Positions 330 to 62,724 of a stretch of DNA of 64,000 bases are shown piece after piece (position 1 is the stretch's first letter; each line of letters begins with the position of its first letter). Below the pieces are notes generated by a model. The model had not been told where the DNA came from, searched no databases, and saw only the letters and a list, made by a program, of their open reading frames with translations. Both the position numbers and the translations under genes were made by a program. Source of the stretch: Octopus sinensis (Eukaryota); assembly GCF_006345805.1 (NCBI RefSeq), contig NC_043003.1, positions 54,870,001 through 54,934,000 of the forward strand. The letters are read 5' to 3'.

Positions 330-1838
330 CTTTGATACTTGATACTTTGATAGGTTTCGGCCATTATTGGCCCAGGCCATGTCTAACTTAATAGCACCAC
401 CTGGTGAAGTCTTTCAAGTCAGAATTTGGGCACTATGGCCCACTCAAGTAGAGAGTTATTGTTTACAGAGACATATCCAGGTGTAGGGGGTTTATCCGGG
501 ATTTCTTGAAGGAATCTGTCCAAAGACTTCTTGAACCCTATAGGGTCAGTTTCTGTTTTAATGTGTTTTGTGTAATGTTAAAGAGAGCGGGGCCAATTGA
601 GGTGAAATAATTGTGCCGTATTGTTGTTATGAGATGAGAGTGCGATTTTTGTTTGGGCGGATGGCACGGGGCCCAAGCCTTGGATGTACCTTAAAGGTGA
701 TGCCACATCATTTGGGCAATGCTGATGGAATATTTTCCACATCATGCAGATGATGTAGCGCTCACGACGACGTTGGAGAGAATAGAGTTTTAGCTTTTCT
801 AGCCGACCCCAATAGTCGAGGCCTGTCATGCCATCTATCTTTTTTGTGATTGCCCTTTGAGGTGCTTCAACTTTTATGATACCTTGTATTGTGTGGGGAG
901 ACCACAGTGGACAACAGTATTCAAGGTGGGGTCGGGCAAAAGTGGAGAAGAGAAGGATAATGGTGTGGATATCTCTCGACTGGAAAGTTCTGAGAATCCA
1001 GGAACACATTCTGCGGGCCATGTCAACTTTGGTGTTTATATGAGTGGCCCAGCTTACGTTGTTGTCCACAATTACTCCCAAGTCTCTGATGTTGTTGGAC
1101 GCCGCGAGAGTTTCACCTGAAGGAAGGGAGTATGGGAGTTTCAGGGCATCCTCTTTTCCAAAGTGGATTAGCTCAAATTTATCCTCGTTCAGCAGCATAT
1201 TGTTTTTTTCTGCCCATTGGATAACAGCCAGTAGATCTGACTGAAGGCATGTCCGGTCATCGCCTCATTTATGACCTTCTGTAGCTTGGAGTCATCTGCA
1301 AAGATTTTTATGTTGCTGTGCTTGATGATGTCATAATGTCATTAATGTAAATGATGAAAAGAAGTGGGCCCAGCACAGTGCCTTGCGGAACGCCACTACT
1401 GACTTTGGCTGGGCTTGATTTTACACCCTTCAACTACAACATGTTGAGATCTGTCTGTCAGGAAACACTCAATCCATTTCAGTAACTTTCCAGAGACACC
1501 AATGTTGGATAGTTTTTTCAATAGGATCTTGTGATCGACCCTGTCGAAGGCCCTACTGAAATCAAGGTAGATGACATCGGTGTTGGAGCCCTCTCCCAAA
1601 GCTCTCAAAATGTCCTCAAAGTGATGCAGGAGCTGCGTTAGGCAGTCCCTTCCATTACGGAACCCATGTTGGTTGGAGATCAGCCGTCTGTTGCTTTCCA
1701 GAAATTGGGTTATTCGAGATCTCACCACCCTCTCAAATACCTTGATGATATGAGAGGTGAGTGAGATCGGGCGGTAATTCACTGCAAGGGACTTGTTTCC
1801 CTTTTTGAAAACTGGGACAACAGACTGGGACAGAAGGT
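330..1838 (-). mobile_element. 5'-truncated CR1/L2-group LINE (RT + 3'UTR), frameshifted, embedded in (TA)n
   Basis: Minus-strand ORFs 1396-1896 ([24 protein letters not shown]) and 578-1198 (RPHLEYC, SLQRRRERY). GVPQG at ~1381-1394 and FADD at 1291-1302. Short-repeat tail (AAGTATC)n at ~330-352. (TA)n on both sides. Confidence 0.93.
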
Positions 1839-2890
<1,052 letters not shown>

Positions 2891-20387: not shown

Positions 20388-20525
20388 ATAGCTCCTGAAG
20401 ATTTCTCTTGAATGAAACAGTACTAGTCCTGTAGAAGCTCCTTCTATATAATAAATTACTTTTACTCTGCATGTATTGAGTGACCTTACTTACTGTGGTT
20501 AACCCCGGATCAACCCGGGACCTAC
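20388..20525 (+). ncRNA. Hammerhead-bearing short element family C (ribozyme ~20390-20440), 3' end at (TA)n
   Basis: AGCTC-CTGAAGA(20395-401)-TTTCTCTTGAAT-GAAA(20414-17)-CAG..CTG-TA-GAAGCT. Close match to 40829-40964, same 3' end GGGACCTAC|ATA. Confidence 0.8.
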
Positions 20526-20934
20526 ATATATATATATATAGGAAAGAATTGGGGAACACATTTCAAAGGTCAGGTCATTTATCAAATTAAGTCATTTCGC
20601 ATCATAGGCATATTCATAAACAGTATCAATTCAAGTACAAATATACAAATCATGAAAGCTGATAAGGGGTCCTGACCTTGCAAATCTTTTCTCCATTCTT
20701 GCCTATATTCTTATTGTTCCTTAAGACCGCCAATGAGTTGCGCTGTATGAAAGGATATCATATTGATATACTTCTCTTAATTATTCCATATATATATATA
20801 TATACATATATATATAACAATTTAGGAGTGACCCTAACAGGTCATTCGTCCACCAGAAAGAGCAGCCATAACTCACACCGCCAAGTAGTAGTATTCAGAA
20901 TTAGGTGAAAATTAAAAACATTTACCCCAATTCA

Positions 20935-21033
20935 TCTTTTAGACGTTGCAACGTTTCTGTGTCATTAATGATTAATTAGCTTAATTAATTAAATTAAGCC
21001 AATCTACCATAGGTTACACTTCATCAGTAAAAA
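20935..21033 (-). ncRNA. Type I hammerhead motif (family B copy 1)
   Basis: Reverse complement of TTTTA-CTGATGA-AGTGT...ACACA-GAAA-CGTTGCAACG-TC-TAAAA; TCATCAG at 21021-27. Confidence 0.82.
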
Positions 21034-21384
21034 CCTGGGAGAGACAAATATACACGAGCCGTCTGTATCGATGCCTACGGAATTAGTCTTAAAATTTTCA
21101 AGACTGACGTATTCGCGCCAAACTTATCAGCAGTAAATATAAACTGCCGATTCAATCTCAGAATTATTCAGAAAATTATCAATAGTCAATTAGGGTAGCA
21201 AAAAATTCAATAGAAATTTATCGCTACCAGCGGCCTGATGGAAAAGAGAAAATAGTCAACGACTAAATATATATATATAACAATTTAGGATAAGTTTGGC
21301 GCGAATACGTCAGTCTTGAAAATTTTAAGACTATATTCCGTAGGCATCGATACAGACGCCTCGTGTATATTTGTCTCTCCCAGG

Positions 21385-21486
21385 TTTTTTACTGATGAAG
21401 TGTAACCTATGGTAGATTGGCTTAATTTAATTTAATTAAGCTAATTTAATCATTAATGACACAGAAACGTTGCAACGTCTAAAAGA
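21385..21486 (+). ncRNA. Type I hammerhead motif (family B copy 2)
   Basis: CTGATGA 21392-98, GAAA 21464-67, palindromic ACGTTGCAACGT stem III, GTC 21477-79, stem I TTTTTA/TAAAAG. A.A mismatch at the base of stem II. Confidence 0.82.
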
Positions 21487-21857
21487 TGAATTGGGGTAAA
21501 TGTTTTTAAATTTTCACCTAATTTCTGAATTACTACTACTTGGCGGTGTGAGTTATGGCTGCTCTTTCTGGTGGACGAATGACCTGTTAGGGTCACTCCT
21601 AAATTGTTATATATATATATTTAGTCGTTGACTATTTTCTCTTTTCCATCAGGCCGCTGGTAGCGATAAATTTCTATTGAATTTTTTTGCTACCCTATAT
21701 TGACTAATTGATAATTTTCTGAATAATTCTGAGATTGAATCGGCAGTTTATATTTACTGCTGATAAGTTTGGCGCGAATACGTCAGTCTTGAAAATTTTA
21801 AGACTATATTCCGTAGGCATCGATACAGACGGCTCGTGTATATTTGTCTCTCCCAGG

Positions 21858-21959
21858 TTTTTTACTGATGAAGTGTAACCTATGGTAGATTGGCTTAATT
21901 TAATTTAATTAAGCTAATTTAATCATTAATGACACAGAAACGTTGCAACGTCTAAAAGA
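21858..21959 (+). ncRNA. Type I hammerhead motif (family B copy 3)
   Basis: CTGATGA 21865-71, GAAA 21937-40, GTC 21950-52. Confidence 0.82.
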
Positions 21960-22173
21960 TGAATTGGGGTAAATGTTTTTAATTTTCACCTAATTCTGAA
22001 TTACTACTACTTGGCGGTGTGAGTTATGGCTGCTCTTTCTGGTGGACGAATGACCTGTTAGGGTCCTCCTAAATTGTTATATATATATATTTAGTCGTTG
22101 ACTATTTTCTCTTTTCCATCAGGCCGCTGGTAGCGATAAATTTCTATTGAATTTTTTTGCTACCCTATATTGA

Positions 22174-22215
<42 letters not shown>

Positions 22216-22298
22216 TAGATAGATAGATACGGTCGGTCATGTTCATCTGTCTTCCCGCTTAGTCTGTTAAGACTTATCATAACTCAAAGCTAGCCTAC

Positions 22299-22560
22299 TA
22301 TGTTCGTCTGATAGACGAAAAACCCTTTCTGTTATATATTTATGCTGTAAACGTACAATTGTTTTCTTTTTGTTGAACAACCAAAGTCGATTATCTATTG
22401 TATGTGCATAATACTTTTTTCTATTGCACTTGTATTATTATTTCATCATGTTATGTTCGTCTGATAGTCGAAAGACCTATTCTGTTATTTATTTATTTGT
22501 AAATGTACAATTATTTTCCTTTTGCTGCATAGCCGAATGCCGTATGTCTGTTGTATGGGA
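22299..22560 (+). repeat. Diverged ~153-bp tandem duplication
   Basis: TATGTTCGTCTGATAG..GAAA at ~22299 and ~22452, with collinear downstream similarity. Confidence 0.75.
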
Positions 22561-22983
22561 ATAATTCTAGCTTTATTGCTCTCGTTTTCGTTCTTATATA
22601 CATTAGTTTTTTTGGGTTTTTTTCCAGAAACTTAATCTTTTTAGCTTAATGCTCTGGTGCTTGCCGGATTCGAGAAGTGGCAGTGATCAACAAGCACGAA
22701 ACTGCTAGGACCTTCCGGACACTGACTGACGCGGAAATCGGCCGCGAAAGGTACATGTATATTGATTTTGTCGGGTTTCCCGTTTGTTATGTTATCGTCT
22801 ATTTTTCCGTATGCTGTTTTTGTTGGATTTCTGCTTGTGTTTTTTTCTTTCTTACACTTGATTCATATATATATAAACTTTCACAGATATTCAATCTATG
22901 TTCACTGTGTAACTTGCATCGACTTGTGTCGCCTTCTTCTTGCTTTCCTGCTTTTCATATTTAATTTTCCTGTATATATCTTC

Positions 22984-23203
22984 AAGGCAGAAATATATAG
23001 CTCGCTTAAGTGGTAAAGAGTGTTACTCAGCACTAGTATTACTAGAAATAAACAACTGAGTAGCCATAGAAGGCACTATCTTAATGACATGTCATTAAGA
23101 TAATGCCTTCTATGCCTATTAAAATGGTTTGACTTTTATTTCTAGCAATACTACTGCTGAGCATTGCCCTTTGTCACTTAAGTGACGTATATATTTCTGC
23201 CTT
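22984..23203. mobile_element. Palindromic fold-back/MITE-like element; partial third arm ~23433-23527
   Basis: AAGGCAGAAATATATA...TTAATGACA|TGTCATTAA...TATATATTTCTGCCTT, no spacer. Confidence 0.8.
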
Positions 23204-23542
23204 TAGGATGTAAAATTGCAAATTAGACACCCATATTATTTATTATTTTCACGTTTACCGTTTATGAAATCAGAGTATGATTTCAACGAATATCTTACGA
23301 GCTGAGTTCAAACCTAGGCACAGCGAAAGCCACTGATGAGCATTAAGATGCGTAAGCATAAAAATGCAAAATCATCTATGATCTCCCTATTCCTGCTGCT
23401 GTAAGGAGACAACCTGCCATGTTAGTCTACAAGATAGTGCATTCTCTGGCTATTGATTGTTTTGCATCTTATTTCTAGCAATGCTGGTGCGGATTAGTAC
23501 CGCCTTTGTCACTTTATAAGCGTATATATATATATATATATT

Positions 23543-27146: not shown

Positions 27147-28461
27147 ACACAGTACTTCTAGTCGGCTGAGGCTGACGTGTATTCACTGCTCCGACCTGTC
27201 AGCGGCCGAAGACACAGAAGACACAGAAACACAAATACAACCCAGCAGGACTACTGATAAACAACTGTAAATACTGGAAGATCTAATATTTTCTGTGAGT
27301 AATTTGAATTTCCCTGAAAATAAGTTAAAATCTTACAAACCTACAGTTTGGGACAAACAAACAAACACCTATCAAAATTTTTAGAAACATAAGTATCTCC
27401 ATTTTTTGTGTGAACATTTTGTCGTCACCTCTTCCTTGAGTATCAGAATATGTAAAAATGCCTTTTGTAACAACACAATTAAATGCACGCTAAAATTATG
27501 GACGTAAGCACCTGCTAACCTTTATTTTCTTCTTGACTACCCGAAATATGCAAACATACTTTTTATTGCAATCACAGAAATAAACACGTGGAGAATAATA
27601 ATAAAAAAAAAAATAAATAAATAAAAATATATAAAAAAAACACTCATTATAGTTTCTCTCTGCTCGTACACGACTCTATTCACAAGTACTGTTCATAGTC
27701 GGCCCCTCCTTGATTTTTCTCAAAGTCAAGGTCACTGTTCGCAAGTTCCATCAACCACATAGTAAACATTTGAACTCTCTTCGACCGACCGTTCTTCATC
27801 CCACTTTATGAAAGCAGTAGTTGCTGCTACAGCTACTACTACTACTGCTATCAGAATTTACTGCTGCTACTACTACTGCTACAATTAGAAACACAAGTTG
27901 ACGATGACATCGAGATGTTTTTCCCCGTGTCTGAATTATACCGGTGGCATCAATGAAAAATCCCTTTCTTTTTCTTTGTTGGGAGAAAAGAGAATTTACA
28001 GTAAAAACAAATCCTCAGCCCTCAGAAATATTTTAAAAGGGAAAAACGTGAGGAAGAAAAAAAAGAAAATTCAAGTAAATTAACGATAGACAAAAACATG
28101 AGCCTTCTCGCACATAAACACATTATTCCCACATATACAAACATACGCAGAGGCAAATATTGAAGTACTAAATGGCACGTCAAATGATATTTAACAGTGT
28201 GGAACATTTTACATGCATATCAATATTCTAAAGTCGGACCTACTATTCCTTATCCTAAAGCTGCTTCAGATAACTAGGAAGGGTTCCTGACTCGTTTCAC
28301 CGTCTGCTTTCAGTCTTGGATTGTGATTCGGTTCAGCCAAAACTCTCTTAGATTTTGTCTGCTGTTGCCTACTCCTACAAGGATTGCAGCTGTTTTTGTT
28401 CCTGCTTTAACTCAAATTTTTCCTAGAGCCCATAGAGGATTGTTTTTGTCAACCATCTATC

Positions 28462-29738
28462 ATGTCAACTACCTACAGATCGAAACTGAGATCTGCGAGA
28501 AGGGCTCGCACTGTTGATCCTTTTTTGGAGAATTCAGTTGGTGAGGCGATCGGTGATATCAGGCTTTCACATGGGAGCCCTGAAATCAGCACTTCTCATC
28601 AGGATGATGGTCCTACCAACAGTCATCTCAACGAGCAGTTGCTGTTGCTCAAACAAGAGGTCGAGCACCTAAAGTCTGTTGTTGCTCATTTACTGAATAA
28701 ACAGTCTCCTATTGACGCAGACCCACCCTTGATTTCTTCCCTGAAGATGTCCAAACTGAAGGGAACAAAATCGAAGCGGCCAAAGAAGGCGAAGGAACCG
28801 GCGGTCTTTTCTGCACATGACCGTTCCTGTGCGGATTCTTCCTCATCTACCTTTTCGGTCCCGGAGGTTCCCCAACCTAATTTGAGGAGCGTAGGCTCAA
28901 ACCCACCTGAAGACCGTTGTTCTCCCAAAAAGAAGAAACGTAGTCAAAACTCCAGTGGGGCAGATTTCGCTACGAAACCTGCTCACGATAAAATCTGTTT
29001 GGATTCTCCCTCACTTGTCCTTCCAATTAATGGCATTGCTCAACCAATTCTGAATGATTTTGATGTGAGTTCATCTGAGGAGTGGTGTTCCTCCAAACCG
29101 AAGAAGAGGCAGTGCAGTTCCAAACCAGGCGGGAAAGTTATGACCACTAAACCCATTCCGATCGACCCCAAAGGCCGATATAAGTCTGATGGCTATGAAA
29201 CCACCCTTTCGAAATCATCCAACGAAGAATCGAATGCCGCAGCTCATAGTAGAGAACAGAAAGACCATTTGCCCACTCAAGATCAGCAATTATTTATGGT
29301 AAAGTTGAATTCATCTGTGATACAGGCATAAAAGAAGACATAAATTTTGCTTCCGTTTTAGTTGGAGAATTGTTCTCTGTCAACGAAAATGTCAGTATTC
29401 ATAAGGTCGCTCGGCTAGGAAGATTCCAAGCGAACTCAACCTCAGACACTAGACCACGCCCAATAAGAGTAATCTTTTCTTCAGATCAGGAGGCTTCAAC
29501 CTTTCTGAACAGAGCTCAGATGCATGCCTGGGAGGACCCCAATTTGGGTTTTCGCGAGGAATACTCACTGAGAGAGAGAATTCGCCGGAGAAACCTAATA
29601 TCCGAACTGAAGATGAGAAAACAGATGGGAGAGAAGGGTTTACGCATCCAAGATGGACAAATAATCAAGTCCTACCTCTGGTCGCATGCTGTAGCGCTGA
29701 CAGGGAACGTGAATCGAGGGCGAATCGAAGTAAAGTAG
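28462..29738 (+). pseudogene. LINE ORF1 (coiled coil, K/S/P-rich linker, RLGR..RPRPIRV domain), interrupted near 29331
   Basis: ORFs 28462-29331 and 29370-29738. Confidence 0.82.
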
Positions 29739-29809
29739 ATACCCTCGTCAACGATGCTATCTCTGATACCCCTTATTCTGCTTGTTCCCCAATTCCCATC
29801 TCAAAAAAT

Positions 29810-32245
29810 TCACAGCTCAGCATCGTCTATACCAACTAGTGCTCCTTATTTCCAAAGTTCAGCGAACTTTTTACATTGACCATGCGTGATTGCCCTGATG
29901 TGATAGCTATCACCGAGACTTGGTTGACCTACAACAAAATTCGTTGCCGTCTATTGCAAGCTGAGCCTATTTGGGTTTTGCCTGCCCGTGTTAGCTGTCT
30001 ACAGGCCGCCTCTTGCCGACCCCCAGGACGATGCTCATTTACTCGAAGCGATAAGATTCGTTTCAGCTTCTCATGACTGTTTGATATTAGGAGACTTCAA
30101 CGCTCCCACGATCGATTGGCCCGCATCAATTTGTACATCATCTTCCCGGTTCGGCCAGGCCCTTCTTGATGTGGCTGAAGATTGTTTTCTATCGCAACAT
30201 GTTGAATATCCGACAAGGCATCGGTCACCTATGCTGGATCTGGTATTCTCCCGCTATCCAAGATCAGTGTCAGACGTATCTGTGTGCGCCCCTCTTGCCA
30301 AGAGTGATCATGTGGTCCTGAAGTTCGTCATGCACACAACTTTTTCTACGCCCACGACTACTTCGCTGCCACTTAGAGTCTACTCTGCAATTAATCTTGA
30401 AATTCTAACCGAGGCTTCCGCGCTTCTGGACTGGCGATCCCTGATGACGTTGTCCTCAGTTGACGAACTATGGTCGTCCCTCAAAGCATATGTAATCTGG
30501 TTGACTGACCAAGCAATTCCCGTTGGGCTTCCCAAAAATAAGAAACACAAGCCCTGGGTGCCGAAGAAGGTTAAACGAGAACTTCGACTCAGCTGAATTC
30601 AAAAATCAGCTTGGGCTGAATTCAAAAATCTGGATTCGACTGCAGCTTTTGAGGTGTACAAAACTCAACGAGACCGAGCTGTGAAAATTGAAAAGGAAGA
30701 ACGCTTCAGATATGAATACAGAATCGCAGCAAACGCCAATAGCAATCCAAAAACCTTCTTTGCCCATGTCCAACGGAATTCCCGCTTGAACAACCAAATT
30801 GCAACGTTGGTAGACTCAACAGGCGTATCGATTGAGGACCCTTATCAACAGAGTCAATTATTTCCTGAGACTTTTTCAACTATTTTCAAACAAGAAGATG
30901 GTCGTGAACCTCCTCCATTTGATAGATCAGTACCCCCAATGCTTCGATTGGTCATCACGCGGGACGAAGTCGAACGCGTTATTCAAGGCCTCGATGTCAA
31001 CAAGGGTCACGGCCCTGATGACATACACCCACGGGTTATCAAAGCGTTGGCTCCGGTCATCTGCCAGCCCTTAACACGTCTATTCAATATGTCATTGGCG
31101 ACGGGTGTTATACCTGCGGACTGGAGAACAGCGATAATCTGCATAATTTTCAAGAAAGGGAGCTGCGAAGACCCGCTTAACTACCGACCGGTTTCCCTTA
31201 CATCAATAATCAGCAAGATGTTCGAAACCATCCTTAAGAAACGTATGATGCTCCACCTCCAAAACACAGCCTCTATCTCTGATTCCCAACACGGCTTCGT
31301 GCCGAAGAGATCATGCTTGACCAACGTACTGGTAATAGAAGAATTGGTGACGCGCATTCTCGATGATAGTGATGCTATCGTTTTTGACATCGTTTTATTG
31401 GACTTTGCCAAAGCTTTTGACTCGGTAAACCACCGCCTATTACTTGTCAAGCTTCAAGCATATAGTTTCCATCCGGATATTGTACGATGAGTTGGTGCCT
31501 TCCTCTCAGATCGCTCTTTCCAAGTCCAAGTTAATGGTTCGCGGTCCGACGTCTCCAGTGCGAGCAGTGGCGTGCCTCAAGGTTTAGTGTTCCTGCAACT
31601 CAACTTGATTTCTAGCCGGGTCGTCTGCTGCTGGAGAGGGCCGATCAGGTAAAGGACCTGGGTATCTTGGGGGATTCCTCCTTTTCGCTTTCGGCCCAGT
31701 GCGTCCATGCTGCCAACAAAGCACGCGGAGTTCTATTCTTGATTCGACGGTCATTCGGAATGCTCACAGCAGCCATATTACTACCGCTCTATGTCACGCT
31801 GGTGAGACCCATATTGGAGTACGGGATTCAAGCCTCTACTCCTTATCTCCTCAAAGACATACAGCATCTCGAAAGAGTCCAGAAGATAGCTACCCGCATG
31901 GTTCTTGGTCTCAAGAATTTATCCTATGAAGAAAGGCTGAAGACGCTCGACCTTTATTCTCTAGAAAAACGACGACACCGTGGTGATCTCATTCTTGCTC
32001 ACAACATCATAAGCGGAAAGTGTAACCTCTCGAAAGAGCTGTTCTTCACTCCTGCTCCAGAGCGTCGGCTGCGGGTCACTCCGAAGAGCTCTATCTGCGA
32101 TAATTTCATTTCAATCGAAGGAGAGTGGCTTTCTCCGACCGGGTTGCGGATCCGTGGAATAAGCTGCCGGACGAGATGGTGAGGATGCCGACGACGCTCG
32201 GTTCAAAGTATCCCTTGACCACAAGTGGCCTGAACTCTTTACATG
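29810..32245 (+). pseudogene. LINE ORF2 APE endonuclease + reverse transcriptase, inactivated
   Basis: IAITETWL, YRPP, GDFNAP, LDLVF, SDH; GPDDIHP, YRPVSLTS, QHGF, LDFAKAFDSV, GVPQG. The YADD region is deleted at ~31592; several stops and frameshifts. Confidence 0.95.
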
Positions 32246-61290: not shown

Positions 61291-61784
61291 CATATATATG
61301 CTCACATATAAATGGGTATATATATAAATGTGAGTGCGTTTATGTATATATAAAATGTGTGCATGAATGTATTCTGTGTACAGATGGCAGATTGTTATAA
61401 AAAATAGAAAATTATCTGGTGAAGTAAAAAATTAGAATTTGAAAAGTGAAAGTTATAAAAAAATTTCTAAAATCGTGAAATGACAGATTGAGCGGAAAAA
61501 TAAGAAATCCAAAGTAAATATGACACAATGAAAATCAATATATGTGACTTGAAGATCCTGAGAAGATGCGATGGTGTATATGTTTTATATTATGTGTTAT
61601 ATGGTTTGAATAATGCCGTGTTGTTTCCTTAGTCGGTGCATAAATATATATATATATGTACATACATTTATACCAACCTACATACATTCACACATATGCA
61701 CACCAAACTTTTTTTCATTTCAACTAGAAAATACTCAATTCTAGAATATAATTCTTTATCTATAACATTTTGATATATATATAT

Positions 61785-61866
<82 letters not shown>

Positions 61867-61960
61867 ATATATACATATATATGTGCACATGCATGTATAT
61901 ATATGTATATATATACATATGCATGTATATATATATATATATATTATATATATTATATAT

Positions 61961-62724
61961 ATGGCGTCCAACAACATCAGAGACTTGGGAGTAACTGTGG
62001 ACAACAACATAATCTGGGCTACACATATAAGCAGCAAAGTTGACATTGCCCGCAGAATGTGTTCTTGGATTCTCAAACCTTCCAGTCGAGAGATTCCCAC
62101 ACCATTATCCTTCTCTTCTCCACTTTTGCCTGACCCCACCTTGAATACTGCTGTCCACTGTGGTCTCCCTACACGAAACAAAATATTATGAGAATTGAAG
62201 CTCCCCAAATGTCAATCACTAAAAAGATAGATGGCATGTCAGATCTCGACTACTGGGGTCGACTAGAATAGCTGGAACTGTATTCACTCAAACGAGGCCG
62301 TGAACGCTACATTATCTGTATGATGTGGAAAATATTCCATCAGCACTGTCCAAATGATGTTGGAATCACCTTCAAAATACATCCAAGACTTGGGCCCCGT
62401 GTCATCCGTCCACAGCAAAAATCTAAATCGCATTTCACAACTACAACACGGCACAATTATTTCACCTCGATTGGACCCGTTCTCTCCAACATTACACCAG
62501 GACACGTCAAAATAGAAACTGACTACACAAAATTCAAGAAGTCTTTAGACAAATTCCTTCAAACAGTCCCGGAAAAACCACCCACACACAGATATGTCTC
62601 CACAAACAATAACTCTCTGTTCGAATGGGCCTTGGTGCTCAAATCCTGAATTGAAAGGCTTCGCCAGGTGGTGCTATTAATTTAGACATGGCCTGGGCCA
62701 ATACTGGCAAAAACTTTTCTAAGT
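61961..62724 (+). mobile_element. 5'-truncated copy of the same LINE family as 330-1838, embedded in (TA)n
   Basis: [23 protein letters not shown]..; same 3'UTR CCAGGTGGTGCTATTAA..GACATGGCCTGGGCCAATA. Confidence 0.93.

Follow-up and report, generated by a model that had tools for sequence, protein, structure and literature searches.

Non-LTR retrozymes were defined by Cervera and de la Peña (2020, PMC7229834), whose account, in its accessible portion, proposes circular RNAs as their templates and Penelope-like elements as their carriers. They are linked to pLTRs in the accessible text of Li et al. (2026, bioRxiv 10.64898/2026.07.22.740005), where one of nine Xenopus retrozyme dimers is reported as cleaved in vitro. 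In the available parts of both accounts the retrozyme insertion step is presented as a hypothesis. Tandem and inverted copies, tails of 30-40 bp and a bias towards (TA)n are known for Penelope elements, the mechanism of which is called open in the accessible text of PMC8557442. In vitro, the Penelope-like protein PAc nicked and extended both strands and started reverse transcription at two internal sites that bound the tail, and hammerhead cleavage was dispensable for its insertion (PMC11167929).

The locus described here occupies positions 20788..22212 of a 64-kb window, the window being the whole analysed stretch of Octopus sinensis DNA (64,000 nucleotides). Judged from its sequence, it belongs to a young hammerhead repeat family that is dispersed and non-coding. 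Like metazoan non-LTR retrozymes, the family consists of low-GC, non-coding tandem units with one type I hammerhead each, in dispersed arrays, in a genome where Penelope-like elements co-occur; for both, a circular RNA is the proposed template. Back-to-back arms, ends of which one is of type A and one of type B, a tail and the targeting of (TA)n set it apart from the non-LTR retrozymes described in the accessible portions of the published accounts, and its unit of 473 nt compares with 170-400 nt (PMC7229834) and 51-972 bp (bioRxiv 10.64898/2026.07.22.740005). With the EN+ Penelope-like elements (Penelope/Poseidon, Neptune and Nematis), as far as the consulted text describes them, it shares a hammerhead-bearing repeat, insertion into AT-rich or microsatellite DNA, a partial tandem accompanied by an inverted, 5'-truncated copy, a tail that is confined to one end, and two internal positions where RT starts. 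Unlike these elements the family has no RT or GIY-YIG frame, its tail is approximately 97 nt long instead of their 30-40, and its arms can reach more than 11 units. It is thus very probably a non-LTR retrozyme family mobilised by Penelope-type machinery: an element which appears to work like a Penelope insertion while having the sequence characteristics of a non-LTR retrozyme, and which is not an autonomous Penelope element.

The locus and its hammerhead motifs

The insertion lies between two (TA)n target flanks without strand, a left one at 20788..20812 and a right one at 22179..22212; a target-site duplication is not delimitable inside the TA repeats. The minus-strand arm ending at site A (20813..21290) contains about 1.02 units, unit positions 118-473 followed by 1 to ~132 as counted from the hammerhead cut site, and its outer end at 20813 is approximate, merging into the (TA)n. 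The plus-strand arm ending at site B (21289..22178) contains about 1.9 units, namely positions 283-473, 1-473 and 1-229. The arms meet back to back at an inner junction without strand (21289..21290, unit positions 118 and 283) with 2 nt of microhomology. The segment between sites A (~132) and B (229), a tail of about 97 nt, is present as an internal copy (21612..21708, plus strand) and as the terminal tail ending at site B (22082..22178, plus strand; start approximate).

A descriptor scan of both strands of the window identified exactly three type I hammerhead cores, starting at +21392, +21865 and -21027, whereas three matches were obtained in none of 60 dinucleotide shuffles of the window (mean 0.2). 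The two direct motifs and the inverted one claimed in the earlier note were thereby recovered. The direct motifs (21384..21487 and 21857..21960, plus strand) have predicted cuts after 21479 and 21952, reproducing the spacing of 473 nt, and the motif of the inverted arm (20934..21035, minus strand) has its predicted cut after 20942. The full unit between the two plus-strand cuts (21480..21952, plus strand), the predicted monomer or circle, has a GC content of 34 % and a longest stop-free frame of 66 codons; the longest ATG-started frame in the tandem has 43 codons. As had been noted, the units differ by only a few nucleotides: one substitution and three gap columns in 420 between the direct copies, and no substitutions and nine gap columns in 481 between the inverted arm and the direct copies. 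The 473-nt array was missed by Tandem Repeats Finder, and two genomic proteins with RT and GIY-YIG domains gave no tblastn match within the 64-kb window.

The Rfam scan gave no match here at the gathering score, and the hammerheads were therefore called from the core consensus and from their conservation in relatives. The 5' core was intact in 227 of 231 copies (5' halves), and the GAAA was preceded by A in 204 of the 231 and by C in 14. Stem III has 4 bp and lies inside the perfect 12-nt palindrome that had been pointed out before. A compensatory double change in this stem was found in 14 copies at 9 loci which, together with the conserved core, would suggest continuing selection on the ribozyme. 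The palindrome had also led to the proposal that adjacent units could form a dimeric hammerhead, a type of structure treated in the accessible part of PMC4209133, and the palindrome duplex scored -17.9 kcal/mol. An obligate dimer was unsupported, as a stem III variant occurring in 9 copies in 2 loci keeps the 4-bp monomer stem and breaks the palindrome; a dimer may thus be formed but perhaps is not needed.

Stem II is long (~65 nt), AU-rich and closed by the A·A mismatch that had been described earlier (A10.1·A11.1), its length and closure differing from those in the non-LTR retrozymes of the two accounts cited above. According to the available text of PMC3088659, 10.1-11.1 is a highly conserved hammerhead pair, with U·U as an exception. 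The activity of the predicted ribozyme is uncertain, since the A·A sits at this strongly conserved pair. Both related families (B and C, below) have G10.1-C11.1, so that the A·A closure is apparently a derived state of the youngest family. In the isolated motif the active monomer fold was calculated at -22.5 kcal/mol, 2.4 above the minimum of -24.9, and the unit folded better than its shuffles (z -4.1), but the minimum fold is not the ribozyme.

Several other features are present in the window. An older dispersed repeat at 22240-22860, just past the right TA flank, gave 43 matches of 70-81 % identity (244 candidates); some of its copies are inverted pairs, and a degenerate hammerhead-like stretch lies near 22725-22770. 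At 20395-20530 a hammerhead-like remnant resembles that of the 775-aa Penelope-like family described below, with (TA)n about 100 nt later, and is possibly the truncated 3' end of an element. An inverted repeat of MITE-like appearance at 22962-23225 has 91-nt arms that are 78 % complementary and 82 nt apart. Broken frames at 28411-32182 (+), 578-2106 (-) and 61756-62649 are, by their look, what we take to be pieces of LINE endonuclease and reverse transcriptase.

Two-armed insertions of the dispersed family

The search of the 2.7-Gb genome with the unit resulted in 238 matches in 40 scored of 1312 candidates, with identities of 94-100 % among the 150 matches listed. The 28-nt hammerhead motif had 577 exact matches in the genome and its reversed control none. 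In common with non-LTR retrozymes, the copies have a hammerhead in every tandem unit of a few hundred bp, form a dispersed multicopy family, are non-coding with a GC content below 50 %, and have flanks of (TA)n rather than of LTR type, so that the retrozyme reading proposed from the single locus is supported at the family level. Some insertions are repeated in the assembly with shared flanks (L045/L055/L057 and L184/L185, the latter probably one event counted twice), and copy counts are therefore slightly inflated. Anatomy was assessed in 39 fetched loci chosen by unit similarity together with the window, from which L055 and L057, the duplicates of L045, were dropped, leaving 38.

Most insertions of the family are two back-to-back arms within (TA)n. 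Site A lies about 132 nt after the cut and site B at 227-229, and one A arm and one B arm were present in 28 of the 38 distinct loci. The remaining loci comprised eight with A only (one interrupted by an N gap and one with a 9-nt B stub), one with B only and an A stub, and one of complex structure. Site A is at or before position 133, as the terminal copy reads A at 134 in 18 of the 22 loci with an inner T, A being the letter expected from the target TA. Arms ranged from less than 100 bp to 5.5 kb, reaching more than 11 units, and the inner junctions were variable in position and mostly had 0-4 nt of microhomology. The partial tandem with an inverted 5'-truncated copy and the tail at one end match the Penelope-type signature, but with a tail of ~97 nt, and the comparison with Penelope pLTR architecture made in the earlier note is borne out by this family-level evidence. 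A twelve-unit array with two B-type ends was observed at L040. A long-range stem between the two sites A and B, the flanking letters of which are complementary, was considered and dropped in favour of a local hairpin at 143-155, which had a probability of 0.5-0.7 in circular folds.

The pairing of unlike ends was also seen genome-wide, where exact end-plus-TA motifs numbered 111 for A and 110 for B. Among the 100 listed of each end, 40 B ends had an A end within 20 kb; 39 of these 40 neighbouring pairs were divergent, the other being a same-strand pair 15.9 kb apart, and divergent pairs of like ends were limited, among the same listed ends, to one B-B pair 16.6 kb apart and no A-A pair. Forty further loci were picked by end motif from the unpaired ends, and 30 of them were two-armed: 12 of the 20 picked by A (from 62 unpaired) and 18 of the 20 picked by B (from 60). 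Since A is often alone and B seldom, this suggests that site A was primed first.

The concern that the arrangement is a chimeric assembly is removed for the family, in which the same anatomy with different junctions occurs at dozens of loci and in which Logan contigs, examined for eight public runs, contained seven arm-to-arm joints in three runs, plus both TA-flanked ends; these runs may include the assembly's own source. The junction of the individual locus (21289-21290) was absent among the listed Logan arm-to-arm joints. That the family pattern itself arose from chimeric or fold-back long reads, or as a passive satellite spread by DNA recombination, is extremely improbable. An artefact would fit the predominance, among unit differences, of small indels of the kind made by long-read errors, the repeated loci in the assembly (as L045/L055/L057) and the absence of this locus's own joint. 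Read fold-backs, however, would yield symmetric arms, not two fixed ends 97 nt apart; the same pattern is seen in an older family at 88-97 % identity, and arm-to-arm joints are present in the Logan contigs.

Evidence on the template

In 120 full units from 33 loci, divergence was 0.0035 substitutions per site within loci and 0.0036 between opposite arms, compared with 0.0126 between loci. Thirteen locus-private substitutions were fixed in every covering segment, 9 of them present on both arms; the other variants were 11 that were private and partial within arrays and 86 singletons, many of which are probably read errors. Fixation of a new mutation in all units needs either a one-unit bottleneck or fast conversion. 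At L040, CpG-type changes showed a period of four and were limited to 4-5 of 11-12 units, and that these changes are still partial argues against fast conversion. The 11 partial variants and the period of four at L040 indicate that there was also some array growth after insertion, a later local duplication being likely at L040. At L054 the order of the partial variants differs between the two arms.

Inner ends were spread over the unit (KS p 0.53, n = 64). A pile-up at the cut site was rejected, ends within 5 nt of it being found in 2 of 116 cases (1 of 64 in the earlier count), and several inner ends cluster 7-16 nt upstream of the cut, at the stem III palindrome. The cut-site letters were kept at 234 of 242 unit-unit junctions in 78 loci, the other eight being singletons. 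Spread inner ends and kept cut-site letters favour a continuous template, either a circle or an uncleaved multimer, over jumps between cut monomers. We consider with moderate confidence that the template was a circular monomer.

The linear alternative, in which an uncleaved multimer from a donor array is copied with the same Penelope two-site priming and the hammerhead is weak or vestigial, is rather unlikely. The A·A mismatch in stem II and the scarcity of inner ends at the cut site would fit uncleaved RNA, PAc takes unprocessed RNA in vitro (PMC11167929), and the shared 5' end of one RNA would also explain why arms stop together. However, copying of multimers alone cannot fix a new mutation everywhere, as would be needed for the 13 private substitutions, and homogenisation is not fast, as seen from the L040 changes. 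The different order of the L054 variants on its two arms also counts against a multimer, as does the continuing selection on the ribozyme that is suggested by its conserved core and by the compensatory change in stem III.

With a circular monomer as the preferred template, the inner junctions bear on how the two arms were made. Both arms stopped within 20 nt of the same unit position at 20 of 58 junctions (expected 8.7 %, p 4e-8; L040 left out of the junction statistics), and arm lengths were correlated (rho 0.65, n = 28; L152 and L158 left out). For about a third of the symmetric junctions, which coincide with the stem III palindrome or with some other hairpin, annealing alone could be the explanation; the remaining ones suggest that a single RNA carried both polymerases. 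This surplus of near-symmetric junctions, several of which fall at hairpins or at the palindrome, could also be produced if a single cDNA folded back or formed hairpin DNA that was trimmed at A and B by the endonuclease, the second arm being copied from DNA; the tail would then derive from endonuclease resolution, as is suggested in the accessible text of PMC8557442. This origin is improbable, as 38 of the 58 junctions are asymmetric, either arm may be the longer by several units, so that fold-back would be needed from either end, and the two tail ends map to RT start sites (PMC11167929). Two polymerases on one RNA remain the preferred explanation.

A search of sequencing runs found no run carrying the unit that was recorded as RNA. 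Two contigs came from runs guessed to be RNA. Contig 6 of run X10 (window 21674-22173), 504 nt long, covers one unit and about 30 nt more and has 17 substitutions; it is weakly indicative of a closed cycle in a 31-mer graph, with which a circle and a tandem transcript would fit equally. The end of contig 23 of run X19 (window 21835-21965), compared by eye with 21936-21965, has A>G as its only kind of change, affecting 10 of the 13 A, in a single contig of depth 4.3. These changes would destroy the GAAA core, and A-to-I editing of inverted arms is a possible but weakly indicated source.

Related families, candidate enzymes and the proposed insertion step

Two related families were found in the genome. 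These are family B (73 % identity, 465-nt period, 2113 candidates) and family C (74-79 % identity, 490-nt unit), the latter represented by the single locus L197. Both have kept the core and, besides G10.1-C11.1, a perfect stem III palindrome that differs from the one here. Their ends are homologous, with 129 and 138 nt from cut to A in families B and C, respectively, and tails of 97 and 94 nt. Further hammerhead repeats with a long stem II were observed at L105:7300-8400, L106, L102 and L116. The arms of the L105 repeat diverge, and it is weakly similar to family B (59 % over 153 nt), which suggests a superfamily of 465-500 nt units. One more match, at L145, came from a pattern designed for another relative. 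By eye, ACCC plus an AT-rich motif precedes the second end in retrozymes (families A, B and D) as well as in coding elements (the L186 and L193 families).

Searches of the genome resulted in 5029 GIY-YIG and 11950 RT candidates, among which were two families with intact frames of 781 and 775 aa, containing RT and, at the C terminus, GIY-YIG. The intact copies are 98-99 % identical and flanked by (TA)n. The linker of the 775-aa family, read from DNA as CX4CxxC, points to Neptune or Nematis, following the accessible text of PMC8557442. In this family a hammerhead closed by a U·U mismatch lies 139 nt ahead of a first end, and a second end follows some 30-50 nt beyond the first, the two ends being on divergent arms at L187. 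The end geometry of the family matches the retrozyme anatomy, and the two-end anatomy is common to both relatives and an intact Penelope-like family of this genome. An extra frame lies upstream of the RT-GIY-YIG frame at L103:2174-3613, L107 and L186-L189; that of L103 has 479 aa and no clear Pfam match. At L103:6850-6900 and at the 3' ends of L193 and L194, apparent hammerheads of two Penelope-like families, with a U3-A8 core swap, were seen by eye, a swap that is reported for hammerheads of Schistosoma elements in the available part of PMC4209133.

No autonomous element alignable to the unit or its 3' end was found in 68 loci (50 GIY-YIG and 18 RT), a small sample of the 5029 and 11950 candidates; the unit matched only independent retrozyme-like relatives there, located away from the coding elements. 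In 80 loci of the family, tblastn matches of the RT and GIY-YIG proteins were few and were fragments beside arrays. The non-autonomous Chlamys elements (MRC1; PMC8557442) are comparable as non-autonomous Penelope-like derivatives with multicopy head-to-tail insertions, but in the accessible text of that paper they resemble their autonomous partners at the 3' end, whereas no alignable partner of the family was found in the 68 loci. The Naiad elements of that permuted-domain group are described in the same text as being without canonical hammerheads, whereas the family has one.

It is fairly probable that a Penelope-type RT/GIY-YIG enzyme writes the two-armed insertions off one RNA, probably a 473-nt circle. 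Read-through transcripts would self-cleave into 473-nt monomers, which a host ligase would circularise. An RT/GIY-YIG dimer would then nick both strands of the (TA)n target and begin cDNA synthesis on one and the same RNA, at its sites A and B; each RT would roll 0.1 to more than 11 times round the template, and the two cDNA ends would join by microhomology. In L1 twin priming, two target strands likewise prime two cDNAs, and a microhomology join gives an inversion. The second site of L1 varies, with the first cDNA ending close to it; in the process proposed here both sites are fixed, and both arms may be multi-unit. PAc in vitro used the same start sites on both strands (PMC11167929), whereas the insertions found here in vivo nearly always have one A and one B.

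The retrozyme class is known, but the insertion signature of this family and the ~97-nt tail are unreported in the literature searched; the search, to which closed journals and Repbase were external, found no account of the family or of back-to-back retrozyme arms. The insertion anatomy would tie retrozymes to the two-site mechanism of Penelope, with a tail about three times the published length. In the widest reading, which we regard as tentative, the arrays are fossils of rolling-circle reverse transcription of one viroid-like circle by a Penelope RT dimer, with starts 97 nt apart, at most 12 turns and a joint stop, and a superfamily of at least four families has repeatedly parasitised the Penelope machinery. 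If the insertions did arise in this way, they would be direct genomic evidence for the insertion step proposed for animal retrozymes, and intact candidate enzymes are present alongside them in this genome. The family offers hundreds of near-identical insertions with strictly one A and one B end, each locus having a single haplotype and the stops of the arms being coupled. In combination with the 99 %-identical intact RT and GIY-YIG frames, these make it testable whether a Penelope RT rolls round a circle, and whether the tail's two ends correspond to the two target strands in a single reaction.
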